Below, one piece after another: positions 13,596 through 56,792 of a DNA stretch of 64,000 nt. The stretch comes from Sphyrna mokarran (Eukaryota). The notes under the pieces are model-generated. The model was not told the DNA's origin, made no database searches, and worked only from the letters and a program-made list of their open reading frames with translations. Position 1 is the stretch's first letter, and every line of letters starts with the position of its first letter. Location of the stretch: the NCBI GenBank assembly GCA_024679065.1, contig JAGIQG010000020.1:8742001-8806000 (forward strand), in the 5' to 3' direction. A program made the position numbers and the translations under genes.

Positions 13596-13943
13596 TGCTC
13601 AGATTCAACTTCGTTCCTCTCCCAAAAATGAAACTACATCCATTGCTGAGCCAAGCACAACAGTGATAATCTGCAGCGTCCTCCGACTGCACGTTGGTGA
13701 TGGTTAAATGCATCTTGTTACTCGATGAGTCCACAGACCCGGTGAATCGGTCTGGAATGTCTGAACCTCTGGTAGAGCTCTGGTACCAAACGAACACAGG
13801 GGTACTGCCGGATTTCTGCCAGTACCAGCTCGTGTCGTATCTGTTAATGCTGTCTCCCGACATGGTGCAGGTAATGGCGACAATCTTTCCCGGTGAAGAT
13901 GAAATGGATCGTGGTTGGGTCAGGACAGAACCCTCAATTGCAC
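13596..13943 (-). CDS. IgL: Germline-joined VJ exon, cluster 1
   Basis: Acceptor ttcaccag at 13944, donor GTAAGT at 13595; V-set motifs ITC, WYWQK, IPDRFTGS, EDAADYHC run in frame into the J motif FGRGTKL; 348 nt. Confidence 0.96.
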
Positions 13944-25303: not shown

Positions 25304-25626
25304 TCAGATACATTTGGATCTGGAGATACTTGTTTGAAGCGGGTTTGCTAGAGCCTCATGTTTGACCACACAGGAGTAAAGCTCGTGTGAGTTCCACTCT
25401 GAGGCTGACAGAGTCAGATAACTGCTCACACTGAACATGTTGTCCGCCTCCTGCTGGATCCGACTGGTCTCAACTCCATTCCCTCTGACGCTGCCATCTA
25501 CAGTCCATTCAATCTCCGCCGCTCCTGGGTTAAAACCGCTCACCAAACACACCAGGGTCGCCATGTTTTTCGCTGTGATTTGATCCGGTGAAGGCGGAAG
25601 GAGAGACACAGTGGGGCTCCGTGGAC
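25304..25626 (-). CDS. IgL: IgL constant exon, cluster 2
   Basis: Acceptor tttccag at 25627; PRSPTVSLLPPSPDQITAKNMATLVCLV...YSCVVKHE...SRSKCI*; 323 nt. Confidence 0.96.
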
Positions 25627-28900: not shown

Positions 28901-29103
28901 CAACTGAACAATCGCCGAAGTTCTGAAGCCACCTATTGCTGCAAATCATTGACTGATGAATCATAGATCCCCTATAAAAATATTTTAGGAGCAATCATTT
29001 TGATTTTCACTAGTTCAATCCAACTATCCGACGGTTTTCAAAGTACATTTTGTTATTTAGATAGCGTCATAAAATGTAGCGAACATTTAAGTGATTTACT
29101 TAC

Positions 29104-29448
29104 TGCCCAGATTCAACTCAGTTCCTCTCCCGAAAGCGTAACTACTTTGACTGTTGATCCAATCACTGCAGTAATAATCTGCAGCGTCCTCCGATTGCAC
29201 GTTGGTGATGGTTAAATGCATTTTGTTTCTTGATGAGTCCACAGACCCGGCGAATCGATCTGGAATACCCGAAGCCATACCAGAGTATTGGGACCAAACA
29301 AGCACAGGGACGCTGCCGGGTTTCTGCCAGTACCAGCTCGGGTAGCTGCTAATGCTTTCTCCGGACTTGGTGCAAGTGATGGTGACGGTCTTTCCCGGTG
29401 AAGACGAAATGGATTCTGGTTGGGTCAAGACAAGATCCGCAATTGTAC
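29104..29448 (-). CDS. IgL: Germline-joined VJ exon, cluster 2
   Basis: TIADLVLTQPESISSSPGKTVTITC...WYWQKPG...DYYCSDWINSQSSYAFGRGTELNLG; acceptor at 29449, donor GTAAGT at 29103; 345 nt. Confidence 0.96.
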
Positions 29449-29602
29449 CTGGTGAAATGCAAAGTATTATCAGTCACACACTGTGAAATGTTAAATATAG
29501 CTTAGAATTCGGGGCTTACAATTCAGGCTCGTTAAAACACAAGCGCAAAAGCAAATAACGTGAAGAAAATGAGTGTTACTTCAGCTTGACGCCCGTACTT
29601 AC

Positions 29603-29651
29603 TGTGAAAACAGAGTAGCAGTGCGGCGAGAACTCCAATCGGTTGTGTCAT
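29603..29651 (-). CDS. IgL: Leader exon, cluster 2
   Basis: MTQPIGVLAALLLCFH, 49 nt, donor GTAAGT. Confidence 0.92.
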
Positions 29652-29772
29652 GGTGAAGGTTTGGGGAGAGGTAGAAGGCAAATAAATCCTGACACGAACG
29701 CGCTTCTGAGTCCGTTCCAACCTCTCCTTAAAAAGATTCAAACACGGCAGGGCGAATGAATATTAATTACGT

Positions 29773-29793
29773 ATGCAAATTTCCTGGCACGTG
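29773..29793 (-). promoter_or_regulatory. Ig promoter octamer plus E-box CACGTG, cluster 2
   Basis: ATGCAAAT at 29773-29780; CACGTG at 29788-29793. Confidence 0.88.
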
Positions 29794-30132
29794 ATAGTAG
29801 GCCGTATATCTCCATTTCGGTATTGTCTGATATTTTCAAGATGCGCACGATAGTCATTTTGGAGAAGAAAAAATATAAACCTTCCAGGCCACAGAGCAGC
29901 GTACAAAATGGCTCAATACCCAATTAACCCCCCTCCCCCCAAAAAAGAGATTAAATGAATCGTGGCTTGATCTCTGGAAGCCTGCAGATTACAATAAATA
30001 AATATTGCGGACAGTAAGGCGTTCAAGAGCGTCCCTGGTGAAAAAATTAGAGAAGAAAAGTGTGAGTTGAGATTTCATGTGCACACAGAGGGGTGTAAGG
30101 GAATTAACCACACTCCATGTTGGCTTCTCGGC

Positions 30133-30297
30133 ATAGATAGATAGATATGTAGAGATGGATAAAAATAAAGATAGATAGATATAGAGATAGATAAATATGG
30201 ATAGATAGATGGATGGATAGATACATAGAAAAAGCAGTAGATAGATAGATAGAAACAAAAAGTAGTAGGTAGATACATAGATAGGTAGATAGATATC
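30133..30297. repeat. Degenerate (GATA)n microsatellite upstream of promoter 2
   Basis: atagatagatagatat...gatagatagat. Confidence 0.9.
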
Positions 30298-33200
30298 TGA
30301 TGAGTAAATGATAAACAAGCCACGAGGAACATTTTATTACCTACTGGAATGTGTTTGAGGCGCCAAAATTGTCTACTCAACACTATTCAAGTGTTGAAAA
30401 TCCACGGTATCCAAAGTGAGTTAAGTCTTGGCAAAATGAAATGCTCAAGGAAACAAAGCTTTTCGCATGATCTGTGTTGGTGGATTTGAGGAGTACATTT
30501 GCTGTCATGGGGAAGAATGAGTTTGAGATTGTCAGTGCATTGGCCGACGGAGAAATGAGCTGAAAATAGCAATTCTTTAAAATCAGATTTTTGATGGCAG
30601 GTGACCCTTCACATCACACCACCTTCTCCTCTCACCGTACGACAGGATTGAGAATCCATCGTACAATGTTCTATTGCCTCCTGATTTGAAAAATAAAACA
30701 AAACAGGCAAGCACTTCAAATGTTGATAACGTTTGCTTGCCACACATCTTCACCCCAAGTATCCTTGAACAATTATGAGAAATAACACGTTAGTTATGCA
30801 GTTGAGGCGCACAGAGGAGAACGAGAAAAAAATGAACTAATTACTTCGCCTGGAGAATTAACGATAGCGGCTGCAGATGCAGTTGCGTCAGTATAAAGAA
30901 TTCGAGAAGAATTCATCGCCGAAAGAGAGCAATCAGTCCATCGCTTCCATGTCGCTTCTGTAAAGGAGCCATGGAACTGGAATTTCTGCCTTGATCTTAC
31001 TCCAGTGTTCGACATATTTTCCACTTTTTTTGACAGTGATTGTTAAACCTTCTTCCGTTAGCCTTTGATCCAGTTGTCTCCAGATCATTAAGAGTTGGAA
31101 CATATTTACCCACCACCGGCCCTCTTCTGTTCCTGCTCCCGGGCTATTTCAAATGTTTGCCTTCCGGTGATCAAAGTTGACGACATTTGAAGCAGCTTCT
31201 CCTGTCCTTACCCAACACCTTTAAGAACATCTTTATCAAATCTTCTGTGCGGCACTAAGGAGAACAATTCCAGATTCTCTCGTCTTTCCATCTAACTGAG
31301 GACTTTTATCTCTGGAAACATGCTAATAAACCTTCTTGCACACTCTCCAAGGCCTTGAAATATTGTCAAGAACAGGACTCACTACTCTAGCTGGGGTCGA
31401 ACAAAGATAAAAAGGTTGACATATTTACTTGCATTTGTACTGGAATTTTACTGACACTCGTGTCGCAAGAGTAAAGGGTGGGAAAGGAATATTAAACTTT
31501 CTCCAGCACTGGGAACATTTCCAAGCGGCGGTCAGGTAGAGGAATCAGGAACAGGCAATTAATGTTGTTAGGCTGAAATATATCAAAGGGTATTTACTGA
31601 AAGGGTATGCCTCAGTCAGTACACTGGGAGTGAGAGGTTTAAGGCCTTGCCTCTGAGTGGAATGCAGAGAGTTGACATCTGCGGTGTAGAAAGAGGGAGA
31701 GAGAGAGACAGAGAATAGTTCAGTTAACACAACGAGACAGCAGGTGCGAGAGAAGAACCACCCTCATGGCGTGGAAGCGGAATCGGAAAACGATTCGCAT
31801 GGGGCCAGAAATGCAGATGAAAGTTGACTGAAGACGGGACGCAGTTGAAATAACAGACAGGAAAAAAAGGCCTACTTCATGGAGATGTTGAATCCAATGA
31901 TTGCGTCCGACTGGAAGCAAAAGTGTAAAAATCTGCGATTATTGGCAGAGCTGATGATTGGCAAGAATATAAAAACCGACAAGGAATGATTAATAAAGTA
32001 ATGAGGAAGGAGAATTTAGTGTATGAGAGAATGTTAGCTAGACATATTAAAATAATGTAAGAATTTCTACATACTTTTAAAAAGGAAAATGCCACTAAAA
32101 TAAGTGTGGTTACTCTGGAGTAGGAGTACCGGAAATTCAGAATACGGAATGAGGACATGGCAGCACAATTGATATATTTTTTGCGCCTCGCTGAAGGATA
32201 CATAAATAAAATCCCAGAAATGCTTGCAGGGAAAAGATAGAAGGGAGGGAGGGACGTAAAGCAACTACAAGCACCAGGTCAATGCTGCTGAGAAAACGAT
32301 CAGAACTGAAGGTTGGCAAGTCGTTAAGACATGATGGAGCTGGGGAAGATACCCTTATGCAGAGTGGATGCAGGCGCGATGGGTCTCCCTCTGCGTTGTA
32401 GTGATTTTATAATTCCATGAGATTCGGAAATAGCATCTATTTCTCCTCTATTCAAGAAAGGAAAGAGACAGAAAAGATGTAACTACAAGCTAATTAGACG
32501 AACATGTGTTAAAATTAAAATGCTACAATCTATTGTTAGGCATGGCACTTGCAATTATGCAGGGCTTTATATAATTGAAACCATACTTTATTCATTTGTT
32601 ACATTTACTTGAGCAAATTGTTAGTGACGTGGATAAAAAGGAACCTGTCGTCTTCGATTTCCAAAACGCATTTCATGAGATACCGCTTCAAAGACAAAGT
32701 ATGAAAAGCCAAATAGGAGCCCATCATGTATGGGGTAACATTTATCATGAATTGAGGATTGGTTGGCTTACAGAAACAGAGAGGTGTGTTGATTGAGCAT
32801 TACTGGGGGGAGGGGGCGGGTGGGTCAAATATATCCGGTGGTATGTCGCAGGAAAGGGACAGGGAAAGAAGAAAGGGACATCAATTAAAATAAGTTTTTC
32901 AATTGAGATGTCGATAAAGAGAATTTCATTCTCTGTGAGAGCGATTAGTCGGTGGAACTCTCTTTACCAGGAATAAAACCCATCGTCAATGATGGCGGAT
33001 AATTAAGCAACTCACTGGAGGAGAAGACATCACAAATGTCCCCACCCTCAACGATCAGTGAAAAAGATAAGGCTTAAAACGTTCGCAAGAATCTTTTGTC
33101 ATGTATGCAATATGGATGATCCATCTTCGCCTTATCCGTAAATAGTCAGCATTACGGATGTCAAGCTTCAGCCAAATCAATTCGCTCCACTTGATATCAA

Positions 33201-33980
33201 GAATTGGCCGAACGCCTTGAATACTACAAAGGCTTTGGGCCCTAACAATATTCTGTCGACAGTCCTGACGACTTGTGCTCCAAACCATGCGGCCCCGCCA
33301 GTCATTTACAATACTTACATCTACTGGGCATTGCAGAAAATTACGCAGTTACGTTCTCTACGCAAAAAGAAGGGCAATTCCACTTTATTGATTAGCCATC
33401 AGGCCACTCCAAATCATCAGAAAATTGATGGAAGTGGTCATTAACAGCGCAATCAAACTGCAGGAACTTAGCTGGAACATATTCACCACACATACGTTGG
33501 ATCCGCTAGTCACTCAGTACCTGAATTCATTGCAGCCTTGGGTCAAACATGGACAAGAGTAGTTGAATGTCCGATTGAAGTGACTGCCCTTGACGTCAGG
33601 GCAGCACGGATGGAATTAAGGAGCCCGCACAATGCTGTAGTCAATTAGAATCAGAGGGAAAACTCCTCGCTGGTTGGAGTCATACCTAGCACACAGGAAG
33701 AGTATTGCGGTGTTGAAGTTCAATCATCTAATTTGCAAACTTCACTGCAGGAGTTTCTCAAGATTGTGTCCGAGGTCCAACCATCCTTCTCTGCTGGGAT
33801 GACCTTCCTTGCATTAAAATGTCAGCAGTGGGGACGATCACACAGTCTACAGGACCATTCCCGCATCATCAGAGACTGTCCACACGTAGTAAGTCCAGGA
33901 CAATATCCAAGCTTGGGTTGACAAGTGGCAGGTAACCTTCGTGGAAAAGTAGCGCCAGGAAATAATCATCTCCAACAACA

Positions 33981-34742
33981 GGTGTACAAGATTATGAGGA
34001 GTATAGATAGAGTAAACAGGGTTAAGCTTTTTCCTAAGTTGGACTCAAATAGCACGAGAGGTCACGGGCTTAGGGTGAGGGGGGTGGGGGTAAGATATAA
34101 TTTGGATGTTAGAGGGAGTTTTTTCACACAGAGGGTGGTGGGGTATGGAACGCGCTGCCAAATAAAGTGGTGGAGGCAGATACTCTGGAGTTATTTAAGA
34201 GATACTTAGATAGGCACATGAACAGAATGGGATTGAAGGGTATAGAAAACTGATTTAAAATAAGGATCATGAGCCTTGGGAGTTCCCTGGGAAGTGTGTA
34301 AATTGTCGATGATATTGATGCATTTGTTTTATTCTACAGGTACTTCGGTCCGCTTTGTTGTCATACACGCAATGGGTCGTGAGAGGGCTGCTCTTGGATT
34401 TTTCGAGAGTATCCTAGTGCTTCACGTCGTTAGTGCACGCTTGACCTGGACCATTTGATGGGCAACACGACAGTTCAGTGACTATCGCTGTGCTGTGCAG
34501 ATACATGGATTTGGGCCTGTGTCTGTGGGAGTTTGCGCATTCTCCCCGTGCTTGCGTGGGTTTTCTCCAGGTGTTCCGGTTTCCTCCCACATCCTAAAGA
34601 TGTGCTCTTAGGCTGACTGGCAGAACAAATTCTCCCTAATTTGTCTCAAATTTGTTTTCAATGCATAGATCTATAAACATAGACAGGGATCACGGGTAGA
34701 AGTCGCGGGCTCGTTGGGCAGAAGGGCCTGTTTCCCGTGCTA
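33981..34742 (+). mobile_element. CR1 subfamily B 3' fragment flanked by target-site duplication AACAGG
   Basis: VYKIMRSIDRVNRVKLFP..TRGHGLRVRG; AACAGG at 33977-33982 and 34742-34747; empty site at ~20020. Confidence 0.88.
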
Positions 34743-37700
34743 ACAGGGAATCTAACCGTTGTCCCTTGACATACAATGGTATTGCCACCGCTGTCGACAT
34801 CCTAAGGTGAATATTGACAGGAAACTGAACTGATCCTGACGTTTAAGATGGCTACAAAAACAGGTCAGAGGCTATGAATCCTGTGACAAGTATCTCATTT
34901 CCTGACTCGCCAAACCTGTCCACCATCTGCGAGTCAGAAGTGAGGAATGCGATAGAATATTTGCACTCGCCTGAAGCTTCTATAACTTTCAAGCAGATTA
35001 GACCATCCATGACAAAATTTGACTGGCACCTATTCCACAAACTCCCTCCGCGACGCTGAACAGTGGCAGCAGTTTGTACCATTTGCAAGATGCGCTGCAA
35101 AATCCCATAGGAGCTCCATTGGCAGCATCTTACAAAATTACATCGCTACCGTCCAGGAGGACAAAGGAGGCAGACACATGGGAATTCACCACCATTTTAA
35201 CGCTTCCCTCCAAGTTATTCGCAATCTGACATGAGGGTATATTGCTTACTTAGACCACAGGGACTGCGCTGATTCAAACAAAGCAATTCACCACCATCAT
35301 CACGAGGGCAATTGCGGTGAAGAATAAATGCTGGTCTAGTCAGGATGTTCACATCACGTTAAAAAAGATGCAGAATTCGATTGAAAAGGGATCCAAAGAA
35401 TATAGGGGTAGACAGGAATTAGGGGTCGAGCCAAGACCACATCAGCAACGATCTTAGGCCTAATCCTCCTTCCAATTCATACAATCGTATAATTTGTATT
35501 TGCGCCTTTCTTGCCCATTTTTATCTTGCCAAATTTCTGAAACTTCGAATCCACTAATGTGGCACTGGCAGTATTATCTTTAGTGAATGAAGCAGGAAAG
35601 GAAGTGAGAGTAACACATTTCGTAACATTGGTTTCTTACTGCTTCTAATCATTCGTATTTTCTAATATTATAGACAGTCACCACTAAAAAGGCGAACACA
35701 TTAAACATCGAAGTTAATTGACAATACCTAACGAGAATATTCTGAAAATGACTTCCATGTCTGAATCCCTATTTATCAAGTATCTACGTATTAGGCCAGG
35801 AATTGATATTTTGAGATAATTTTCGCCGCCTAGACACTCCATGTAACAACACGGTCCCTGGTATATCAATTGCAATATTGCCATCTGCTGGTTCAGCCGT
35901 ACAACGTGCAGAGATTCATTGGGATTCAGTTTGGACTTCTTTCATCTATTGTATATAGTCCAATAGAAAGCAGGGGAAATGAAATGATAATTATAACATG
36001 AAATTCAGGATAAATTCAGGAACTCTGATCGCACTTGTGAAGAGAGAAACACAAGTTCTGTATAAGGGTTGTTTCCACTGCTGTGTTTGGTGAAAGTGTT
36101 CAGTCTCCAGTAAATTAAGTGTAAATCCCATCAGTACCTTTATCATGCATTTCAAACGTTTCGAAAACAGGTGCAGGCGCAGCCTCAAACAAGGCAATAG
36201 GAACTAACACTGTAAAGAATGCCGGACGCTGTAGATTGACCATTAATTGCCGGATTAGTATTGCAGAGTCCTGGAAAAAGCAATGATTCTGAATCTCTTC
36301 ATGGTGTCTGGCAATAAATCTTGAACATAAGTAATTATAATTATGTTAACAAAAAACTCTGAATTGCCGAAAGAAACGTTCTCTTCATTAACATCATTCC
36401 GGCAGGAAGTCCTTAATGAGTACATTCGTGACTTCACGTTTTCGGTCCCGAAAAAGATACAGAAGCCCGAGGCCATGTACCAACCAAGTTAAGAACAGCT
36501 TCTTCCCTGCTGCTCTTAAATTTTGAATGGATCTAAGTCGCATTAAGTTAACGTTTCTCTGCACCCTAGCCATGACAGTAACAACACATTCGACACTCTT
36601 GCCTTTTCTTCTCTATGAATGGCATGCTTTATCGGTATAGCATGTAAGATACAATACCAGTCACCGTATGCTAATACATAAAACAAGAACACATCACATC
36701 AAATCAAATCAAAAGTATTTGTGCCATTAGGTGTGCAATGCATGACAGCCACATTAATAAGACGCTGTTAGCAGTTCTCTTGAGAATGGACCTCCTGATC
36801 TATTGGTTTACGTGTTACAGAAAGAGCCGTTCACCTGAAATAATTCGAAAAATAACAGCAAAGTAAGGTCAAAGCGGCAGTAGCGCAACTTTTGTTTTCA
36901 ATTCCGGAAGTAGTTACAGATGAGAATTAGAGCTCAGGAGTGAAGTAGTTTGGTGGAGGGAGAGGAAAACATCAGAGCGTATGTAAAGCCTAGCAAAAAG
37001 CAAGAACACAACTGATGCCATGCTGAAAGCACACCATTATTTATACATATTGTAAAGAGTCGAGGCCACAGCACTGATCATGTAGCATACCACTCCTCAC
37101 ATCTTGCCAATCACAAAATTGTCCCTTTTGCCTACTCTCCGTTTCCTGTTCGCTCGCAAATTTTCTGTCAATGACCCCAGACGATAAACTCTCATTTTCC
37201 GCAATACTCTTTGCTGTCACATCTTATTAAATACTTACTGGAAAATACAGTACATCCACCTGCTCTCCTTTATCCACAGCATGTTACTTCTTTAAATCAC
37301 TCCAGTAAATTGATTCAACATGACTTCTCTTTGACCAAACTGTGTTGGCGCTTTCTGATTACTGTGAATTTACTAATGTGCCCTGCTATCAAACCTTAAT
37401 AACCGCTAAATATGTTTTCCTTATATGTCACATGTTCAGCTGACTTGCGTTGTACAGCTAACGTGTTTCTACTTTAGGTCTCTTTTTCCTATTGCATTAA
37501 ACTGATACATCTGCTGTTTTCCAATCCAATGGACGCTTCCCAGAAACTGGGGAACATTAAAACCAACCCATCAATTATCTCATTTGTCACTTCTTTTAAG
37601 ACTTTCAGGTAAAATCCAGCAAGACCTGAGGACTTATGAACCGACATCTTCAACAACTTTCTGAGTGTTATTTCCCTGACGATTCTAATTTTCCTGAGTC

Positions 37701-38236
37701 CTTCTCTTCTATTTCCTGCCCTACTGCTATTTCTGTGATACTATTTGTAGTATTTGTCATACAAATAGTATCATACTTCTCCCCAATGAAAACTAAAGCA
37801 AAATATCTGTTCTCTTCATCTGCAATCTTTGTTTGCTACAAATTCTCCAGACTCAATTTCTATCATCTATCGCCCACACTTGCAACTTTTTTATTTGATC
37901 GTTAAACTTTACAATTTGAAGTTGATGTTTAGTGTCATAAGTAGTAACACTGCTATAAAATTACTGTGAAATCCCCAGTCGCTGCAGTCCGGCAGCTGTT
38001 TGGATACACTGAGAGAGAATTAGCAACACTAAGCACTATGCCAAAGGCAAGAAATAATTGAAAGAAACTCTGGGAAACAAATGAACTGGTCTGGAAGCAT
38101 CTGTGGAAACGGAAACAGAGTGAAAATTGCGCTTCCAAAAGTGCCAGCTGAAAATATATACAATGAGTTTCGTTCACTTGAACTTCACTGAAAAAGTACA
38201 GGAAATCACTCCAATTATACCCTCAAGATGAAAATT

Positions 38237-38788
38237 GGATAGATTGATGAAACCGATGACTGCATGAAATGTTACTCGTGCACTGGGGTGTGGTTACTTG
38301 GACAGCTCTTTGAAAGAGTATACTGGGTCAAAGATATTTTTGTGTTGTATTCTTCTGTGAAATGGTTGGGAACTGAGTTCAATATAGCCATTTGTTATGA
38401 TCAGGTTTAAATTCGTTTAAATTATGATGAAGCAGATTCACAAGTTTCTTCTAAAAGTCAATAGAAACTAAATACGATTGAAAGATTGTGACGAGAGAAT
38501 GTCTTGGATTAACTATGCATCATCACTTCTCTTTGCTTCTGTCCAAAACAATTGTCCACTGATCCTGAGTCTAAGATCCCGTGTTCTGGATTTCACAAGC
38601 AGGGCAAACATCCGCCTGATCTTTTCAGTTTCAAGGGCAGGGTCTTTCCGATAGTCGGTTTCTCTGTCCATCAACTCAATTCCCCGCTCTTCTTTGACCC
38701 AGTGCACGCTTTGAAAGAGCTGTTCAAGTAATCACACTCCAGTGCACGATTAACATTTCATGCAGACATCGGTTTCATGAATCTATCC
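38237..38788. repeat. 98-bp inverted repeat (arms 38237-38334 and 38691-38788)
   Basis: ggatagattgatgaaaccg...ctgggtcaaaga vs tctttgacccag...cggtttcatgaatctatcc, about 90% identical. Confidence 0.9.
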
Positions 38789-39539
38789 TCCTCAGTCATT
38801 GGACAAATGGTGGGGAAAAACATAAGCCAAAAGGAAGACATGCACACACTTCTGCGGAGGAGGTACCGCGTTAGAGGACTGACGGCCAACCGTTAGTGCA
38901 GCAACTTGTAGGTTCGAGCGGTGACCACAGTTCGGGTTGCAACTGATCTCGAAAGACGAAAGTTGGTGTAGGCCAAATGGCATAGGTTTTTGGGGCTTTT
39001 GGTACCGAGGGAAGCGGTAGTGTTCCCCTTGCCCTACACCAGCACTCAGCTCCCTTGTTGCATTATCTTGACCCAGACAGAGGAATTATTGTAGTACCGA
39101 CAGGATGAAGCAGTTGACTGATTCTTAATTGGTCACTTACGGGCGTCAATGGGCTCAAATGTGCGCTCACCGCTCAAAGAATTTGTTCTTCCCAATAGTT
39201 GGAGGAGATTTCTAATCATCACAGTAGAATTGTTCAGTGAGGCTGTGGTGAGATAGAACTTCGTGCTTTCAGAGTGCATAAAAAGCCTAATATACTTTCA
39301 GATGATGCCTACAAGGGGGAGCACGTGGATGGGCAAAAGAATGGGAGCCAGGGACGTATTGTCGAATTGCTGGAATGTGAGCAGGAACAGTAAACATTGC
39401 AGACAAACTTGTAGACATTATTTGATAAAGAATAATGGAACCTGATCACGAGAATAGGCACAAGCAACTGATTAATGAAGGAGAATTGTTGGTTTATGTG
39501 TAGAACCGCGTCAAAGACCGACGCCAGTCCGAAAAGTAT

Positions 39540-39815
39540 GAGCATAGTGGTTAGCACTGCTGTTCCATACCGCCAAGAACCCTGTTTCGATTCCCGCCTT
39601 GAGTCACTTTGTGTTCACATACTGCACGTTCTTCCCGTGTCTGCGTCGGTTTCCTCCATATGCTCCCGTTGCTTCCCATAGTTCGAAAGATGTGCCATGC
39701 AAAATTCTCACAGGCGGCGGGGTGTGGCAACTAGAGGTTTTCACTGTAACTTCATTGCAGGAATTGTAGTTTGGATTACAACTGATAGTTGAAAGTTTAT
39801 TGTGACAATAACAAA
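39540..39815 (+). mobile_element. V-core SINE (paralog ~61505-61780)
   Basis: tagtggttagcac...gtttcgattcc...gcacgttcttcccgtgtctgcgt. Confidence 0.75.
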
Positions 39816-40361
39816 GGAATTGTAAGCATCTCTTAAAAACAGTAGTACTTTGCTCTCGTTACTTTGAATAGAATGTAACTTTGATAAAGGTCATATCAGT
39901 AATGTGGCAGAAGCAGAAGCAGAGTGATTGTGGGGATTCAATGCTGAGTTGTTGAAACGATTGTAAGGATCTGGGATTAGTAATATCTTCAAGTAGTTTA
40001 GAGAAGGAATGTCAACAGGAGATCGGCAATAGTTTACAAGGAAAGAGGAACAAGGCTGTTTTCAAAGAGAGGTTTGATAGTAATCGATGTGAAAGAAAGA
40101 ACACTGTCTGAGGAGAGATAGCAGTTCATGATATCAGCGAAACTGGGGTAAAACAAAGAAAGTTAGATGGTCAGTAATTTATTGGAAACATGGTCCACAT
40201 GGGTCTAATACAGAAAATGAATTATGGAAGGCAATGAGGGAATATATGAAAAAAACATTCAAGTCAACTATGATGCATGCGAAGTAGTGTTCCGTCATTT
40301 CACTCCGATATAACTTCATTCTAAGGAAAGCGTACGCTCTATTTTTTCTAGATTATGTTAT

Positions 40362-42630
40362 TAGAACAAAGAACACAGAAAATTATAGCGCAGGAACAGG
40401 CCTTGGGCCTTCCAAGCCTGTACCGATCATGCTACCTCATGACTAAAACCCTCTACCCATCCAGGGACCATATCCCTCTAATTTCATTCTATCCATCTGT
40501 TCGTCAAGGCGTTCTTTTAAAGTCACCATCGTATCCGTTTCCACTACCTCCCCAGCAATGAGTTCCAGGCACTCATTACCCTCTGTGTGAAAATTCTGTC
40601 CCGTACATCTCCCTTAAACCTTGCCCCAGGCATCTTAAACATATGTCCCCTTGTAATTGACCCTTCTACCTGGGAAAAGGCATCTGACTATCCGCTCTGC
40701 CCATGCCTCTCATAATCTTGTAGAATTCTATCAGGTCACAACTCAACCTCCTTCGTTCTAGTAAGAACAAATCAAGTTTCTCCAAGCTCTCATCATAGTT
40801 GATGCCCTCCATACCAGACAACATACTGATAAATCTTTTTCTGTACGCTTTCCAAAGCCCCCGCACCCTTCTCGTAGTGTGGCGACCAGAATTGAACACT
40901 ATGTTTCAAATGTGGCCTAAATAAGGCTCTACAAAAATGTGGCTTCTCCATTTTTAAACCGAATGCACCTCCCGCTGAAGGCAAGAATGCCGTTTGCCTT
41001 CTTGACTACCTTCTCCTCCTGCATTGCCACTTTCATTGACCTGTGTACCGGTACCCCTAAACCTAACCCTTTGCCTATCAATAATCTTAAGGGTTCTGCC
41101 ATTTACTATTTCTTTTCTATTGCATTAGACCTTCCAAATGCATTACCTCATAGTTGTCGGATTAAATTGCACCTGCCAACTGATCCAAGTCCTGCAGTAT
41201 CCTCCGATGGTCCTCATTGCTGTCTGAAAATCCAGCAACTTTTATATCGTCTGCAAACTTACGAATTAATCTGGCTACATTGTCCTCCAAATCATTGATA
41301 AAGATATTACAAACAGCAACGGTCTCAGCACTGATCTCTGAGGAACACCACTTGTCACAGTCCTCCTTTCAGAAACGTACCTTTACATTGCTACCCTGTC
41401 TCTTCTTTGACGAAGCTGGTTTTGTATCCATCTTGCCAGCTCATCTCTGACCCTATGCGACTTCACCTTCTGCATTAGCCTGAAATGAGGACCTTGTCAA
41501 TGGCCTTACTTATGTCCATGTAGATAACATCCACTGCCCTACCCCCATCAATCATCTTCGCCACTTGTTCGAAAAACTGGATCAAGTTAGTGAGACACAA
41601 CCTTCCCTACACAAACCATGTTGCCTCTCACTAATATGTCCACTTATTTCCAAGTAGAATAAATCCTGTCTCAAAAATTCCTCTCCAAAAATAGCCCTAC
41701 CAATAATGTTAAGCTCACCAGCCTGTAATTTGGATTATTCTTGTTAACCTTCTTAAACAAAGGAACAACAATGACCATTCTCCAGTCCTCTGAGACCTCC
41801 CATGTAGTCAGTGAAGATACAAAGCCCCAGCAATTTTCTCCCTTGCCTTTCTCAGTACTCTGGAGTACATCCCATCAGTCCCTGGGGACTTGCTTACCGT
41901 AATATTTCTCAAGAACCCCATACTTTCTGCATTTTGATCTCAACATGACCCAAAGTAACTACACACCCTTTTCCATACTCATCATCCACGAAGTCCTTTT
42001 CTTTGGTAAATACTACCGCACAATACTCATTTAATACCTCGCCCATTTCCTCTAGCTCCATGCATAGATTCCTCCCTTGTTCTTGAGTGGGCCAACCCTC
42101 TCCCTGGCTACCCTCTTGTTCTTTACATATGTATAAAAAGCCTTGGGATTTTCCTTAGTCCTGCTTGCCAAAGCTTTTTCGTGGTCCCTTTTAGTCTTCC
42201 TTACTCGTTGCTTAAGTTTCTGTCTTTTTTCCTTATTCCACACTTGCTTCACGTGTTCCTATTTCCTACCTTTGACAAATGTTTCCTTCGCTCCTTTGAC
42301 AATGCTCACAATATCTCTCCTTATCCAAGGGTCCCAAAATTTCCCATACTTATCCTTCATCTTTACAGGAATGTGCCGGTCCTGAATCTCTATCAACTTG
42401 CACTCGAAGGCCTCCCACACGCCAGACGTTGATTTTCCTTGAAACATCGTCCCCCAATCTACATTCGTTAGTTCCTACTTAATATTGCTGTAATTAGCCT
42501 TCCCCCAATTTAGCACCTTAACTTGAGGACTAACTTAATTTTATCCATCAGTATCAGTAGTTATTGAATTGTGGTCACTGTTTCCAAACTGCTGCCTTAC
42601 AGAAACATCAATCACCTGGCCGGGCTCATT
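40362..42630 (-). mobile_element. Decayed CR1 LINE
   Basis: SLEKLDLFLLERRRLSCDLIEFYKIMRG; RTKENPKAFYTYVKNKRVARERVGPLK. Confidence 0.88.
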
Positions 42631-44159
42631 AGTGGAAATAATTTCTCTGGATCTATACTATCGCACTAGTTGATCATTCGAAATACGTCAATTAGGGACA
42701 TAGAGTGCAAGAGAAGGCAGACAGTGAGTGACTTAGCAGAAAAGTGTCACTGTTCCAATCTGTATTCTCATTCATGCTTTTAACTTTCTTCACTATAAGC
42801 GCTCGGTTTCGCAAAGCCACACAAATTCTTGCTTCAGCCATAGCCTCATATCAGTCAAAAAACAAGAGATCCTGAAAATTTTTCAACTAGTTTTGTGCCA
42901 AATATCAGCGTTGGAAAGTCATCCCTTCTGAAATAGATTGTGCCTCTTGCTGTCTCTATCTAAGGCATGTCCAAGTAAGGACAAAGTTCTTGCTGAGGCA
43001 GTGTTCCTCCAGATGTATTGGTATTCAATATACATCCATCATGCAGCATGTTTCAAATTGTTAGAACATGCTCTTGATTCCATCTACCCTCAGGTGCACT
43101 ATTCTAAAATACTGCTTCCACAATCCTTGCTAAAGCAAACGTGTCTTTTTTATTACTAGATTGCAACTTTAGAAACATTGAGTTTCTTTTAGTGCCTGAG
43201 TGAGGCACTCTCGTAGGAGATTCACCAGGATGATGCCTGAGCTGTGATTATTTTTTTATAGAGCAAGGAAAACTGAGGTGTTATCTCATCGAGGGGCACA
43301 AATTATGAACGAAATAGATTGAGAGAAAGCTTTCACCTCAGTACAGCGGGCACTAACCACGGGGCAAAGATTTAAAGGAGCAGGCGATTTAGAGAAGATT
43401 TGAAGAAATACTTCTTCAGCCAAAAGGTGTTGGGAATCTGGAACTTGCTGTCTGCAATGGTGACGGAGCAAGGAACCTCAGTGCATTTGAGAAATATATT
43501 GATGAGGAATGAAAAAGTAAACCGCTGGTTGGCACACAGACGCGAAGTGCCTCATTCTGGCCTGGTTTCCTCCAACAGCTTTAAAAGATAATACCTAGCA
43601 CGTTTAAACGGTCGTTTTCAAAACTGAACCCTTCAGCAATTAATTCACCCTGACGAATAGCCCTATACACCTTCATGATATCAATGCATCTACGGCAATC
43701 GTACCGCCTCGCCCGTCACGGAATCAGAGCTGACAGCGGCAGAGAAAGGAAATGTCCCTTGACCTCTGGCGGGAAGTTCCGGTCTCGATCCAGAGAGGCC
43801 GTAAAACTCCCGCAGCTCAGTGTAAAAACCTAAATGCAGCACTTCAGCTGTGATCTGATCAGGGCTTTAGAAAACAAGAAGCATTACTTCCCCACTTTTT
43901 AATTTCAATGCTCTTGTGATAAAGAGAGGTATTCTATTTGATTTCTAATTTACCTTCTGTTCATGCATAGGAATGTTCATTCAAAACATCTCGCCTCTTA
44001 ACGTTACGTAAATTTTTGGAGCAGCTCGCTTTCATATTTTGGTCACAGAATCACACAATTCACTGGTCCATTCACTTCGTTTATCTATGAATACCGAAGG
44101 GTCAGCCAGTTTTCAGTGCCTCCTGAACTTAATCTGATCTGCCGATATGTCACTTTGTC

Positions 44160-44320
44160 ATTTTTAACATTTAGGCAAAACTTGGACAGGTACATGGGTG
44201 AGAGATGTGTGGAGGGATACGATTCAATTGCAGGTCAGTGGGGCTAGGCAAAAAATAGTTCGGCACAAGCAAGACGGGCCAAAAGGCTTCTTTCTGAGCT
44301 CTGATTTTCTATGCTTCTAT
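44160..44320 (+). mobile_element. Short CR1 3' fragment
   Basis: ttggacaggtacatgg...gggccaaaaggc...ttctatgcttctatg tail. Confidence 0.6.
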
Positions 44321-44860
44321 GTTTATGAATCACTCTAACCTTCAATTCGATCGGCAAAATAATCTTGTTCCAGAAATGATCCTCGGAAACCGACATTTAT
44401 CTCCTTTGTTAGTAAAGCGCCCACTTCAACATAATCATTATAGGCCAATTAAAGTTATTGGACAATATATTAAAAGAATGACTTGCAGTACCAGAACCTA
44501 CGTTGCAACTGCTGCATTAAAAAATGAGGACGGAGTTTGTCCTGAATATTTGTAACCAGGCGGATTAGAAATGTCTGCCCGTTTTTGTGAATCTTGAGAC
44601 ACAGTTCAACTCTTTCATTACAATGGCAGAATATAATTAGTTCCATTAAAAAATATGTTGCAATATTACTTCATGCTGTTAATTTAATGTCATCGATCGT
44701 CTCCTTGTTGTGCCTAGGTGTCATTGGCTTTTAAAAAGAATGTGCAGAATATCACAATATAATCTCATCATTTAATTCCCTTTAAAATGCAACCATTATT
44801 TTTTTTTTAAGGGGAAGAGACAGAATAACAAAACAACAGTCGAGATAACGGTATAATGAT

Positions 44861-44866
44861 TTTATT
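44861..44866 (-). terminator. Polyadenylation signal AATAAA, cluster 3
   Basis: tttatt on +, about 190 nt past the stop. Confidence 0.7.
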
Positions 44867-45056
44867 ACACAGCAATATCAATGACATAAAACTGAATCTT
44901 TGATTCAGGGTGAACAGAGTTAAATTGAAACTAAGGGAATCAGCTGATCTGCTACAAACTGTGATGAACTGTTTGAAATATTCCACGATTTGTGGAATTT
45001 ATCTTGAAATGAAACTTTACTAACGGCAGAAAACAAAAATGCATTAGATGCTTGAA

Positions 45057-45379
45057 TCACATACAGCTGGATCTGGAGATGCTTGTTTGAAGCGGGTTTG
45101 CTTGAGTCTCGTGTTTGACCAGACAGGAGTAAAGCTCGTGTGAGTTCCACTCTGAGGCTGACAGAGTCAGATAACTGCTCACACTGTACGTGTTGTCCGC
45201 CTCCTGCTGGACCCGACTGGTTTCAACTCCATTCCCTCTGACGCTGCCATCTACAGTCCATTCAATCTCCGCAGCTCCGGGGTTAAAACCGCTCACCAAA
45301 CACACCAGGGTCGCCATGTTCTTTGCTGTGATTTGATCCGATGAAGGTGGAAGGAGAGACACAGTGGGGCTCCGTGGAC
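45057..45379 (-). CDS. IgL: IgL constant exon, cluster 3
   Basis: Acceptor tttccag at 45380; PRSPTVSLLPPSSDQ...YSCLVKHE...SRSSCM*; 323 nt. Confidence 0.96.
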
Positions 45380-48300
45380 CTGGAAAGTAGAGACAATGAT
45401 CGCACATCTATTAAAAATCAACATAAAACACTGAATCGTTGTTTCACCTTCTTCAGATTTTGTTTAAAATCGCTATTATTCTACAAGAATGTATACATTT
45501 TATATAGTGGAGTCTTATTGATGCCAAATGCAAAAAGGCTGGGACTCTGGTTTCTGGTTTCTGGAAGACATACAACCTGAGAAGGTTTTCCTTTTTCCCC
45601 TGCACGGACGGGAACATGCAAATATTAAAGAGAAAAATAAGAAGGAAGGTTCCGTGCATCCACTTGTAATCTGAAGGAACGCTGTCCTAGCGGGCGTCAC
45701 GGTCACCGAGAATTCCAGAATAAGAATTGTTTGCTTCTGTCACCATTTACACTTAACTGACACAAATCCTACATACTGGACTGATATTTGGGTTTGTGTA
45801 CATTTTTTGCCGTGGCCTCACACCGTGTGCCGCCCAGACCAACAAGTGAGGATGTAGCGTAAATCTTAACAAATAACTTCCTATCGCAATGGAAATGTTT
45901 GGAGACATTTTTTCCGACTGTCACAAACAATTTGTTACAACTAAGAGGAAGAGTTTCTAATCAATATTGTAAACAATTCTAATACATAACAGCATCACCT
46001 AATGACAACCTCAAAAGGCCAGTAATAAAGCAAACGTGTCCTCATAATTATTTATCTCTCATACCTTGTGGCCAAAGCAGATGGACTGTGAGATCTTATT
46101 GTGCTTAGATAGGGGACCCGTGATTCTGACAATTGAAGAATGATTCTGCATCACAAAGACTTAATTGTGGGCATATTCTGAGATCGTGGTCGGCGCTCAG
46201 TCAATGAAAGTTTGCATTTTCTTTTCTTTGTCATTAGTCGATATTCGCAAAGCTGAAAGGGCGTTGTCTCTTTAAGTGACCATTTACCGCTTAAGTTACC
46301 ATCTATCACAATCAATGGGGAAACGCTGAGTAAATACGTTAAGACATTGTAAGGCATCAAAGAAAGGGTTCAGATATGAATATTCATTTCAAATTAAAAG
46401 GACAAGGCTAACCTCTTACAATTCGCCCTGACATTGTGGTATTATGTCTGCTACTATAACAATATGAGGTTTGTCGCTGTCGGCGTAAAAATAGATTATC
46501 TTTGGAGCTAGAAATTCGTCTTATATTTTGAAATGTAATATTCATCCTGTCGCAGAGAGGATGACTAATGAAATTGTGACCGGGCTAAAGGGGATGGCAT
46601 AGTTATAGACTAGTGAACATAGCCTCACTGAAGGGAGAACGAATGGAATAAACGCGGCGTAATCAAATGCAGCAATCACGACATTGCTAGCGGAAAGTCT
46701 TATCCCAATGCGTGAATTGGTATTTTTGAGCAGGTATCATGAGCGGTGAATGACGGCAATATTTTTGCTATAGTCTACATGGATTTTAACAAGGCTCTTG
46801 TTAAGTTCACACATTGGATGAACAGGTTTGATCCGAAATTGGTTCAGAGGCGGAAACAAAGGGTCCGTATATCAATGAGTGCCTCTATGATTGTTGTTAG
46901 ATGAAACAAATTTGGCAATGTGGTTGCGAACGAAGGAAACTGAATAATGCAGGAAGACAGCAATGGACTAGTTAGATAAATGCAACAGCGGCAAATGGGA
47001 TTAAATGCCGAAAAGCGTGAGCAACTGCATTACTGGAAGGCCAACAAGACAAGCGAGTACACGGCATAAATGGGATAATGCCTTTAAATGTGGCGAAACT
47101 GAGTGACTTGAAAATGCATGTCCACAGATCCAGAAGGTGACACAGCAAGTGTTATGGTAGCAAAGGAGGCATGCGGGGCACTTATATTTATGTGCCGGTT
47201 GTTAGAACTTGGAGTTTATGCTGAAACTGTTGGAAAGATGCATAGAAAAAATGTAATTGTACGGGAGCGAGAACAGGGAGATCTGGAGTCAGCTGAAATG
47301 GAATATTTAGTTATAAGTAAGTATTGAAATGTCCTTTTCTTTGGAACAGAAGAGGCTGAAGACAAATCTAGTTGAAGGCATAATATTCTGAGGTGTCCGG
47401 GCAGAATGAATCGGAAAACAGTATTGCCAATGGTTGCGGCTCCATAAGTACGGAGCTTGGATTTAGCGTTAGAAGTAGAAAGGTTAGCGGAGATTGGAAG
47501 GGAATAGTTTCACCCAGAGTGTTTAGGGGTGTGGAACCTATTGTCGGAAAGTCTGTTAGTGACAGATTAATGGACATTTAAATGCACATACAATGTGTAA
47601 TCTGAAGACTAATTAATAAATGATGGATTGTTCCTTGTCAACCAGCGCAGACACGATTGACCAAGTAGATAGTAATAATGCTGCAAAGATATATCATTCG
47701 ATGATTCCACGAATATATTGTATTGTTTTCCTCCCTCATTCAGGCACAGGGCTACAGTGTGCAAATTTATAAGATACAGTGTCGCAATTCCAACATGAGC
47801 TTCCAAACCAGCCATGTCTTCCACTGGATGAACACACGCGCAGCAGATGCACGGCAGCACAACCAGTTGGTAAATCCCCATCAAGTTACACAGCCTACCA
47901 AAGTAGAACTATACTGCCTTTCCTTGGCGAAAAACTCTTAGTTCCCTCCTTAACAGCTCTGTGGTGTACCTATTACAAATGCTTTCTGATCATATCCCAT
48001 GAATCAATAAAAATGGCAATAATCCGCACGTTTTGTTCTATTACAACTCACTGACAATCACAGAACCAGCAACAATCTGAACAAGTCCACAACAATATTC
48101 AAAAACCTGGCAACTTATTCCGAGACATTCCAAAAGAACTGATTGGGTAGAAAGAAAATGAACCGTAATTTCCGACAAAGCAAATATTCTGCGCATGCTT
48201 GATGTTTGTTAATGTGCGATCCAGTAACAATCAGGATCTATTATTACTGGCTGAATTCTCGCAACAATATTGTTATTTTGGATACCCGGGGTTAATGCGA

Positions 48301-48449
48301 AATGATAGGCTGAGAATCTTGTATTGAACATTTTCAGTGAGTTTGCGGACGAGTGGGAGTGAGTGGCTATTGTTCCGCAGACCCAATGCAAAAAAGATCT
48401 TAAAACATAATGTTGCTTTAAGTGGAATGAAGCAGCCTGATGTGAACGT

Positions 48450-49012
48450 TACAGAACCTTAGTTTGGCCGCACTTGGAATACAATTTTCAATTCTGGTCG
48501 CCACACTATCAGAAGGATATGGAATCTTTGCAGAGGGTACAGAAAAAATTTGACAGGATGTTCTCTGGTATGGAGGGAATTAGCTATGATGAGAGGTTGG
48601 ACAAACTTCGTTTGTTCTGACTGGAGCGTTGGAGTTTGAGGAGACCTGATAGAAGTCTGCAAAGTTATGAAAGGCATGGAAAGAGTGGATAGTCAGAAGT
48701 CTTTCTCCCCCCAATTTGGAAGAGTCAGTTGCTAGGGGGCATAGATTTAAGGTGCGAGGGGCAAACTTTAAAGGAGATGTACGAGGCAGATAGTTACAGA
48801 GGATAGAGTGCCTGAAATTCCTTGCCGGAGGCGGTATGGAAGCAGATACGTAGTGACTTTAAAAGGGTGTCTTGACAAGTACACGAATAGAATGGAAATA
48901 GAGGGTTATGGTCGCCGGAAGGGTAGGATGTTTTAGTTAAGTCGGCAGCGTTGTCGGTGCAGACTTGGAGGGCCAAAGGGCCTGTTCCTACGCTGTAACT
49001 TTCTTTGTTCTT
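48450..49012 (+). mobile_element. CR1 3' fragment in the J-C intron of cluster 3 only
   Basis: cacttggaatacaattttcaattctggtcgccacac...ttctttgttc tail; empty site at ~12985 and ~28314. Confidence 0.85.
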
Positions 49013-49583
49013 TTGAATGTAATTCCAGCGCATTAAATCAGGCTACAAGAGCAGCGCGTGACACAGACTGAACCAGCATGTCGCTTTCATAAAATCATGG
49101 AATTCTAGAGCGCCTAAGGGACCGACGTTGGCTTGTAAGAAAAACCTGCTCACTTCGCTGATTTCTATGTCTGTTGTTTTTCACTGTTGAAATGTTTATC
49201 GTCTTGCTAATTATAGTTCCGCTCGCGGTGTTCATACAACTAGGGCACTCTGCTACTAACACTAACTGAGCGAATGAAAACATCCCATCTTTCTAGCAAT
49301 CCGCATTCAAATCATCTCCTTGGGCTGCCGACTGGATCAGGTGGCGCAAAATTCTGGACAGTCCCAGCAGAGCAGACCGGGATTGCACACACTCCAGAAA
49401 AGTTCTGAACCCAGCTATCGCTGCAATATCATTGGTTGCTGAATCAAAGATCCCCCATAAAAATATTTTATGACCAATCATTTTGATTGTCACTAATTCA
49501 ATCCACTTATCCGACCGTTTCGAGGAAATTTTGTTCTTAAGACAGCGTCACAAATGTTTGAGACATTTAGGTGATTTACTTAC

Positions 49584-49934
49584 TGTCCAGATTCAACTTC
49601 GTTCCTCTCCCGAAAATGAAACTATATGGACTGCTGCTATATCGAGCACCACAGTAGTAATCTGCAGCATCCTCCGACAGCACGTTGGTGATGGTTAAAT
49701 GCACCTTGTTACTCGATGAGTCCACAGACCCGGCGAATCGATCTGGAATACCCGAAGCCATGCCATAGCTCTCGGACCAAACAAGCACAGGGGCACTGCC
49801 GGGTTTCTGCCAGTACCAGCTCGTGTAGTAGCTGCCAATGCTGCCTCCGGACATGGTGCAAGTGATGGTGACGGTCTTTCCCGGTGAGGACGAAATGGAT
49901 CCTGGTTGGGTCAGGACAGGATCCGCAATCGCAC
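49584..49934 (-). CDS. IgL: Germline-joined VJ exon, cluster 3
   Basis: AIADPVLTQPGSISSSPGKTVTITC...WYWQKPG...DYYCGARYSSSPYSFIFGRGTKLNLD; acceptor at 49935, donor GTAAGT at 49583; 351 nt. Confidence 0.96.
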
Positions 49935-50070
49935 CTGGTGAAATGCAAAGTATTGTCAGTCACACACTGTGAAATGTTAAATATAGCTTACAATTCAGGT
50001 TCGTTAAAACACAAGCGCAAAAGGAAATAACGTGAAGAAAATGTTACTTCAGTTTGACGCCCGTACTTAC

Positions 50071-50119
50071 TGTGAAAACAGAGTATCAGTGCGGCGAGAA
50101 CTCCAATCGATTGTGTCAT
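50071..50119 (-). CDS. IgL: Leader exon, cluster 3
   Basis: MTQSIGVLAALILCFH, 49 nt, donor GTAAGT. Confidence 0.92.
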
Positions 50120-50240
50120 GGCGAAGGTTTGGGGAGAGGCAGAAGGCAAATAAATCCTGACACGAACGCGCTTCTGAGTCCGTTCCAACCTCTCCTTAAA
50201 AAGATTCAAACACGGCAGGGCGAATGAATATTAATTACGT

Positions 50241-50261
50241 ATGCAAATTTCCTGGCACGTG
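50241..50261 (-). promoter_or_regulatory. Ig promoter octamer plus E-box CACGTG, cluster 3
   Basis: ATGCAAAT at 50241-50248; CACGTG at 50256-50261. Confidence 0.88.
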
Positions 50262-50629
50262 ATAGTAGGCCGAATATCTCCATTTCGGTATTGTCTGATA
50301 TTTTCAAGATGCTCACGATAGTCATTTTGGAAAAGAAGAAATATAAACCTTCCAAGCCACAGAACAGCGTGCAAAATGGCTCAATACCCAATTAACCCCC
50401 CCCCCACCCCCCCCCCAAAAAAAACGGTGTGATAAAACATAAAGAGATTAAATGAATCGTGGCTTGATCTCTGGAAACCTGCAGATTAGAATAAATAAAT
50501 ATTGCGGACAGTAAGGCGTTCAAGAGCGTCCCTGGTGAAAAAATTAGAGAAGAAAAGTGTGAGTTGAGATTTCATGTGCACACAGAGGGGTGTAAGGGAA
50601 TTAAACACACTCCATATTGGCTTCTCGGC

Positions 50630-50712
50630 ATAGGTAGATAGATATGTAGAGATGGATAAAAATAAAGATAGATAGATGTAGAGATAAATAAATATGGATA
50701 GATAGATGAATG

Positions 50713-50750
<38 letters not shown>

Positions 50751-50810
50751 AAAAGCAGTGTATAGATAGAAAGAAAAAGCAGTGGGTAGATACATAGATA
50801 GATAGATATC
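50630..50810. repeat. (GATA)n microsatellite upstream of promoter 3
   Basis: Includes a pure (gata)n run at about 50713-50749. Confidence 0.9.
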
Positions 50811-56035: not shown

Positions 56036-56792
56036 GGTATACAAGATTATGAGGAGTATAGATAGAGTAAACAGAGTTAAGCTTTTTCCTAAGTTGGACT
56101 CAAATAGCACGAGAGGTCACGGGCTTAGGGTGAGGGGTGGGGGTAAGATATAATTTGGATGCTCGAGGGAGTTTTTTCACACAGAGGGTGGTGGGGTATG
56201 GAACGCGCTGCCAAACAAAGTGGTGGAGGCAGATACTCTGGAGTTATTTAAGAGATACTTAGATAGGCACATGAACAGAATGGGATTGAAGGGTATAGAA
56301 AACTGATTTAAAATAAGGATCATGAGCCTTGGGAGTTCCCCGGGAAGTGTGTAAATTGTCGATGATATTGATGCATTTGTTTTACTCTACAGGTACTTCG
56401 GTCCGCTTTGTTGTCATACACGCAATGGGTCGTGAGAGGGCTGCTCTTGGATTTTTCGAGAGTATCCTAGTGCTTCACGTCATTAGTGCATGCTTGACCT
56501 GGACTTTGATGGGCAACACGACAGTTCAGTGACTATCGCTGTGCTGTGCAGATACATGGATTTAAGCCTGTGTCTGTGGGAGTTTGCGCATTCTCCCCGT
56601 GCTTGCGTGGGTTTTCTCCAGGTGTTCCGATTTCCTCCCACATCCTAAAGATGTGCTCTTAGGCTGACTGGCAGAACAAATTCTCCCTAATTTGTCTCAA
56701 ATTTGTTTTCAATGCATAGATCTATAAACATAGACGGGGATCACGGGTAGAAGTCGCGGGCTCGTTGGGCAGAAGGTCCTGTTTCCCGTGCT
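56036..56792 (+). mobile_element. CR1 subfamily B 3' fragment (duplicate of 33981-34742)
   Basis: Same boundaries and flanks as the 33981 copy. Confidence 0.88.

Follow-up and report, generated by a model that had tools for sequence, protein, structure and literature searches.

Probable unequal crossover in or at the V exon of a germline-joined immunoglobulin lambda array in Sphyrna mokarran

Unequal crossover between adjacent paralogs A and B yields the order A, hybrid, B, and hybrids of the anti-Lepore type have arisen by this route among the tandem paralogs of hemoglobin, opsin and glycophorin. The immunoglobulin (Ig) lambda genes of sharks offer a setting for such exchanges in which V and J are already fused in the germline. 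Passages of two reviews describe all shark lambda genes as joined (PMC5192425, PMC4279169), and in excerpts of a wider set of papers this statement stands beside notes on the conversion of V regions in cartilaginous fish and of Ig light-chain genes (PMC2193156, PMC5192425, PMC5985310, PMC4279169, PMC6186787, PMC12227049, PMC2192082), V-region conversion in cartilaginous fish being mentioned in part of PMC4279169. The source of diversity of shark lambda genes has been an open point since the work on skate and sandbar shark, according to an excerpt of PMC2192082. By its sequence, the stretch described here lies within an array of shark Ig lambda (type II) genes in which V and J come joined in the germline and are followed by C, of the same kind as the joined VJ-C clusters of shark lambda (type II / NS3), to which it belongs without a distinguishing difference.

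A germline-joined lambda array and its neighbors

On its minus strand, the window (the whole 64,000-nt stretch that was analyzed, G000:C772:8742001-8806000) carries three full light-chain clusters, each composed of an octamer, a leader, a joined VJ exon and a C exon. The following features carry the argument:

13596..13943, minus strand: joined VJ exon of cluster 1, the outgroup (leader 14127-14079, C exon 9370-9048)
29104..29448, minus strand: joined VJ exon of cluster 2, the probable parent at the left end of the triplicated block (Pfam V-set)
29603..29780, minus strand: octamer (29780) and leader exon (29651-29603) of cluster 2, of a promoter lineage common to clusters 3 and 4
25304..25626, minus strand: C exon of cluster 2 (Pfam C1-set; spliced frame open, 238 aa)
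49584..49934, minus strand: joined VJ exon of cluster 3, the probable hybrid, with cluster-5-type FR1-CDR1 and late FR3-CDR3-J
50071..50248, minus strand: octamer and leader exon of cluster 3, of the cluster-2 lineage (7/189 from cluster 2 versus 18/189 from cluster 5)
45057..45379, minus strand: C exon of cluster 3, of the cluster-5 lineage (open spliced frame, 240 aa)

In cluster 2, V is joined to J within a single open exon (29448-29104, minus strand). We added 30 kb to the left of the window and 170 kb to the right, and the resulting 264 kb contain twelve V exons, numbered here as clusters 0 to 11, with clusters 1 to 3 inside the window. All six clusters of group I (clusters 0 to 5) have open spliced frames of 238-240 aa, an in-frame germline fusion of V to J, one leader and one C, and Pfam assigns V-set and C1-set domains. 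The best single-V hits come from sharks, namely lambda or lambda-like chains with 75-86% identity; V3 is 82-86% identical to Mustelus lambda chains and 84% identical to sandbar shark lambda.

Beyond group I the contig carries a variety of related clusters, whose positions are given, where they continue the numbering of the window, as window-extended. Cluster 6 (112290-115593, window-extended; L008 region) lies between both groups, is inverted (plus strand) and belongs to a more divergent lambda subgroup, and cluster 11 (213819-217106, window-extended; L018-L019 region) is a pseudogene, frameshifted in both V and C. Farther to the left, five joined VJ-C clusters (L021-L025, 7.94-8.02 Mb of G000:C772) have V exons of another family, with a long CDR2 and 41-48% amino acid identity to V2, and the V of L025 contains stops. 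Their C exons are 92-93% identical to C3 and their flanks are unrelated, suggesting C conversion over about 0.8 Mb between clusters of opposite orientation. The joined VJ exons of L026 and L027 (8.04-8.06 Mb) are of distant families, and their C exons are 67-71% like C3.

At the right end of the joined array lies an unjoined light-chain cluster (L028, G000:C772 from 8978001, plus strand, at 1700-2525 and about 7830-8160). Its V has one stop in FR2 and a 23-spacer signal at 2225, which faces a 12-spacer signal ending at 2482; its J has a GT donor and its C exon is open. It is 56-59% (V) and 59-61% (C) identical to the nearest shark lambda chains compared. A 23-spacer signal at V and a 12-spacer signal at J form the lambda-type arrangement. 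On these features the cluster could be a relic of split lambda, or lambda-2, of which an excerpt of PMC5985310 reports none found in cartilaginous fish. It is perhaps more novel than the hybrid genes described below; passages of the reviews cited above call all shark lambda joined (PMC5192425, PMC4279169).

Opposite groupings on the two sides of V

The earlier note on this stretch had described clusters 2 and 3 as near-identical upstream of V, with a break in identity at the VJ exon, and the break is borne out. Upstream alignments of the two clusters are 93.5, 97.0 and 95.6% identical over 28918-42018, or about 96% over 12.9 kb, and identity falls to about 80% from late FR3 onward. In the J-C intron they are, as had been claimed, no closer to each other than to cluster 1 (p-distance 0.18 for clusters 2 and 3, and 0.17-0.18 for cluster 1 with either). 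The quoted peptide strings were recovered as well, with GMASGIPDRFAG in V2 and V3, SFIFGRGTKLNL in V1 and V3, and SYAFGRGTELNL in V2, and so was the insertion, a putative CR1, that clusters 2 and 3 have in common; it is flanked by a 6-nt repeat and is also present upstream of cluster 4. The drop had been placed at CDR3. However, identity between clusters 2 and 3 is down to about 91% as early as FR1-CDR1 (13/144 differences, with CDR1 of unequal length), indicating that the loss sets in with the 5' end of the exon. The next cluster beyond the window had been predicted to resemble cluster 3 in its 3' half, and cluster 4 does so, with 99% identity in the C exon, 95% in the J-C intron and 1/75 nt different in CDR3.

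With the flanks included, the clusters group in opposite ways on the two sides of V. Upstream, clusters 2, 3 and 4 are 96% alike and cluster 5 is 78-79% identical to all three; in the J-C intron and the 3' flank of C, clusters 3, 4 and 5 are 95-98% alike and cluster 2 is 77-80% identical to all three. When clusters 0 and 1 were used as outgroups, 68/69 shared derived sites down to 29493 united clusters 2, 3 and 4, and from 29444 on, 56/56 united clusters 3, 4 and 5 (55/55 from 29196). The maximum chi-square on the 125 polarized sites was 121, a value reached in 0/2000 permutations. Trees gave bootstrap values of 100 both for clusters 2, 3 and 4 upstream and for clusters 3, 4 and 5 in the J-C intron, and AU tests rejected the opposite topology on either side (p 1e-34 and 1e-39).

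The near-identical block between V2 and V5 consists of a unit of about 22 kb present three times (20.5, 22.4 and 22.0 kb), with 2.7-3.3% divergence between copies:

29098..49577, no strand assigned: copy A of the triplicated unit, in which the C exon and J-C intron belong to cluster 3 and the upstream DNA to cluster 2
49578..64000, no strand assigned: copy B, continuing past the window to about 71960; copy C reaches about 93951
33980..34741, no strand assigned: repeat insertion in the upstream DNA of clusters 2, 3 and 4, absent from clusters 0, 1 and 5
56035..56792, no strand assigned: the same repeat insertion in copy B

Both ends of the 67-kb repeat lie at the homologous V position (V2 and V5). 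The insertions at 33980-34741 and 56035-56792 are edged by a 6-nt repeat, as read by eye from the edges of the sequence. Copy-specific indels of 91-1536 nt separate the three copies, which are equidistant and patchy and give no order for the two duplications. Over 42445-44000 of the window copies A and C are 0.9-1.4% apart, compared to about 3% elsewhere, a low divergence which suggests that repeat copies exchanged sequence afterward.

Parents, hybrids and the exchange zone

Clusters 3 and 4 are very probably hybrids, in which upstream DNA of cluster 2 was joined to the CDR3-J-C half of cluster 5 by a crossover in or at the V exon. Unequal crossover within V had been proposed in the earlier note, and both the opposite groupings and the repeat ends at V2 and V5 agree with it; the note had taken cluster 2 for the recombinant, a choice that the crossover geometry reverses. 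Given the arrangement of a hybrid between its two parents and the order 2, 3, 4, 5 along the array, clusters 2 and 5 would be the parents and clusters 3 and 4 the hybrids, which indeed lie between intact parents, with 5' portions like cluster 2 and 3' portions like cluster 5. As parents should be, cluster 2 in its 3' half and cluster 5 in its 5' half are without a near match in the 11 clusters compared (77-80%), and on either side clusters 0, 1, 2 and 5 lie at roughly equal distances from one another (0.17-0.20). SYPS, SQYSG and SDW (CDR1, CDR2 and the start of CDR3) occur together in a Mustelus chain (P0024) just as they do in cluster 2, suggesting that the cluster 2 V is an old unit. The J string SFIFGRGTKLNL is likely ancestral, the J of cluster 2 being the odd one.

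We postulate an ancestor in which cluster 2 adjoined cluster 5, the two being about 20% apart except in the V/promoter region and the C exons. Misaligned in the germline and paired at the V island, they would have crossed over to give the order 2-hybrid-5, and a second hybrid could have followed once the units, by then identical, exchanged unequally again. Patchy heteroduplex repair, or a later short conversion, may have left a cluster-2-like CDR2 within a cluster-5 V exon, and the resulting combination of CDR loops would be one found in neither parent. Exon-limited gene conversion would hold V and C similar from cluster to cluster, and in doing so would likely supply the homology for crossover.

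The switches between parental types fall within a short interval of the V exon and its 5' edge:

29231..29493, cluster 2 coordinates, no strand assigned: inferred exchange zone, with three switches in about 260 nt
49717..49785, minus strand: cluster-2-like FR2/CDR2/FR3 patch in V3 (6/69 from cluster 2, 12/66 from cluster 5; coordinates converted from the alignment)

There is no clean single switch point, and the three switches indicate that a conversion patch is needed besides the crossover. The last cluster-2-type derived site is at 29493 and the first cluster-5-type site at 29444, single sites that leave the exact point of crossover loose; a cluster-2-like patch follows at 29302-29234, and the cluster-5 type resumes at 29231/29196. 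The promoter-leader-intron tract of cluster 3 sides with cluster 2 (7/189 versus 18/189 from cluster 5). FR1-CDR1-FR2 of cluster 3 differs at 13/144 from cluster 2 and 1/147 from cluster 5 (1-2 in 147 for the hybrids overall), late FR3 at 8/64 and 2/64, and CDR3-J at 17/72 and 2/75. Cluster 4 is like cluster 3, with a CDR2 tract 3/69 from cluster 2 and 16/66 from cluster 5. Synonymous distance in the V frameworks is 0.07 from clusters 3 and 4 to cluster 5, compared to 0.17-0.18 to cluster 2. In tree tests the short FR1-CDR1 tract favors cluster 5, with the alternative not rejected by the AU test (p 0.12), and the equally brief CDR2 tract gives a borderline result (p 0.056). The idea of germline CDR shuffling in the earlier note, which paired CDR1 and CDR2 of one gene with the CDR3 of another, thus fits the CDR2 patch and fails for CDR1, which is of the cluster-5 type. 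It is likely, from these tract comparisons, that CDR2 rather than CDR1 plus CDR2 was swapped into the hybrids.

The CDR2 tract is 18-24% from cluster 5 where about 3% would be expected, pointing to an import on one side, and we consider it probable that the patch entered the hybrids and that cluster 5 was not the altered gene. The hybrids' CDR2 is 3-6/69 from cluster 2, and the nearest array relative of cluster 5 in CDR2 is 9/66 away. Cluster 9 is as near to the patch (4/69) as cluster 2, and cluster 7 is also near. Clusters 3 and 4 differ from each other at 5 CDR2 nucleotides, for which further small exchanges or parallel mutation are needed. The CDR2 type of cluster 5, FVWY..S(T)RG, recurs across sharks, rays and chimaeras, and GMASG occurs in 1/78 chondrichthyan hits, a count over all 78 hits that takes in some cDNAs perhaps bearing somatic mutation. 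A sandbar shark lambda chain (P0018) has YYAS, a CDR2 of the form LVWS..G.ASG and a GAR CDR3 together, and Mustelus and Heterodontus chains pair this CDR2 type with long CDR3s, so that the loop combination of the hybrids may be older than the crossover, or recurrent.

It is conceivable, though rather unlikely, that the crossover was confined to the boundary of leader intron and V, bringing in the whole VJ exon of a GMASG-bearing cluster 5 whose own CDR2 was altered later. Just promoter and leader would then have been swapped, and no CDR; such a sequence of events bears on the CDR2 step only and leaves the crossover intact. Clusters 0, 7 and 9 carry GMASG or something close to it as well, the CDR2 tract groups cluster 5 with cluster 1 (bootstrap 99), and P0018 carries a similar loop combination in another species. 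However, this account requires a CDR2 donor that has been lost. A recent copy from cluster 1 is ruled out, since 9/66 nt separate the CDR2 of cluster 5 from that of cluster 1, a similarity no greater than in the rest of V, and the residues common to the two match the widespread type.

Conversion across the array, targeting and remaining alternatives

Exon-limited gene conversion across the array is evident from comparisons of exons and flanks. The C exon of cluster 5 is 93-100% identical in most 60-nt bins to those of clusters 7 and 10 and of two clusters about 0.85 Mb away, and the flanks of the same distant clusters are mostly 53-70% identical. Among ten clusters, synonymous distance in the C exon is 0.03-0.15, and flanks are 17-20% apart or unalignable. 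The recombination signal in the V exons persists when the hybrids are left out (simplified PHI, p 0.0005); among the V exons of clusters 7 to 11 the same test gave none (p 0.24-0.43). Sawyer-type runs passed the Bonferroni threshold in 5/45 pairs, a result sensitive to framework conservation and given no weight here. The CDR3 of cluster 9 resembles that of its neighbor, cluster 10, although the flanks of cluster 9 group with clusters 7 and 8, which is suggestive on few sites. In a separate observation, clusters 0 and 2 share a CDR1 codon deletion and nearby changes (V0 lies at -6056 to -5712, window-extended), and FR1 of cluster 0 is nearly identical to that of clusters 3, 4 and 5, indicating that cluster 0 is itself a V patchwork.

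Between the parents, clusters 2 and 5, the main stretches above 88% identity are the C exon and the V/promoter region, in the part of the comparison left of 39500, which is the valid part (rightward it runs into the duplicated block); further single windows reach 88% at 31900, 37900 and 22600. With the main parental homology in these two places, homology alone predicts a break at V or at C, and the position of the break is explicable without targeting or selection.

A second, older triplication comprises clusters 7 to 9 (132284 to about 193000, window-extended; L010-L016 region), with copies about 90% alike. The CDR3 of cluster 7 is 12 nt shorter, a form that also occurs in other sharks and in chimaeras, and clusters 8 and 9 share a longer type with cluster 10.

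The broad proposal that the joined lambda genes form a system of slow recombination in the germline, with repeated exchange of CDR-sized tracts even across subfamilies, breaks biased to VJ and selected CDR combinations replacing V-J rearrangement, appears doubtful. Quite improbable, too, is a directed system in which AID or RAG breaks were targeted to the VJ exon and the hybrids were selected for restored combinatorial diversity. RAG action has been argued for shark germ cells, in an excerpt of PMC2193156. Within a unit of 22 kb, the break zone spans about 260 nt and falls on V; among clusters 7 to 9 non-synonymous distance in the CDRs is 0.16-0.25, compared to a synonymous distance of 0.05-0.13; and the CDR3 of cluster 9, on few sites, matches cluster 10 and not its flank-sisters 7 and 8. 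An excess of non-synonymous over synonymous distance in the CDRs is, however, usual for Ig V genes. The homology islands of the parents already account for the place of the break, C exons have been converted as strongly as V with no gain in diversity, and the V exons of group II lack a recombination signal (p 0.24-0.43). The triplication of clusters 7 to 9 begins and ends in intergenic DNA 3' of C, and one of two events at V makes no case for targeting.

Another reading, which we regard as very unlikely, makes cluster 2 the recombinant, copied from the 3/4/5 unit but with a CDR3-J-C half that some other gene supplied in place of the original one. Within the window alone it is indistinguishable from the hybrid origin of clusters 3 and 4, and the CDR3-J of cluster 2 is the most divergent of clusters 0 to 5 (16-17/72 nt from clusters 0, 3 and 4). 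Yet it also needs the upstream DNA of cluster 5 to have been replaced wholesale and the two donors to have been lost, as neither half has a relative above 80%, and the linkage in Mustelus P0024, which makes the cluster 2 V an old unit, stands against it. An assembly artifact or haplotype switch is scarcely credible: near-identical tandem units are hard to assemble, and no hybrid gene is spanned by any read or contig in the public runs examined, but the 264 kb are without any N, the 2.7-3.3% divergence and copy-specific indels of 91-1536 nt oppose a haplotype switch, and in one public run (perhaps made from the very sample that was assembled) two contigs represent the first part of the J-C intron, the one without any difference from cluster 3 (depth 18.6) and the other with 5 differences (depth 10.6), and a 253-nt contig joins a cluster-5-like CDR2 deletion to a CDR3-J of the 3/4/5 type.

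Comparison with known systems

The hybrid origin of clusters 3 and 4 offers one concrete route by which joined lambda genes could diversify, with crossover adding genes and conversion remixing CDRs, and with parents, products and exchange zone all preserved. Through the crossover, these genes, which do not rearrange, likely acquired binding loops in a new combination. Trees of V or of C from joined lambda clusters do not track the history of the genes, a warning for their use. The event would carry greater weight if breaks recur at V across shark genomes more often than homology predicts.

The mechanism is a familiar one, an anti-Lepore-type hybrid plus conversion, and what is new is the reconstructed crossover between lambda clusters. 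No such reconstruction was found in the literature searched, a scope that excluded the original sandbar shark papers and most subscription journals and so provides weak evidence of novelty. As in hybrids of the anti-Lepore type, the hybrid lies between intact parents, takes its 5' part from one and its 3' part from the other, and has its break in the most similar stretch. In contrast to them, the shark parents are about 20% apart outside the exons, and the hybrid is present twice, in copies about 3% diverged, with a patchy zone of three switches.

Germline gene conversion is reportedly also at work among the light-chain genes of pig kappa. The homogenization of C limited to the exon, and the patchwork of V, are likenesses to the germline conversion of Ig light-chain genes described for duplicated human IGKV in an excerpt of PMC6186787. 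The array described here differs from human IGKV and pig kappa in having V and J in one exon, so that CDR2 and CDR3 can recombine in the germline within a finished gene. The joined NS4 genes of the nurse shark, attributed to RAG in an excerpt of PMC2193156, likewise involve germline change to light-chain V genes; however, NS4 genes arise by joining of V to J at signal sequences, whereas the event behind clusters 3 and 4 would be a homologous exchange between genes already joined.
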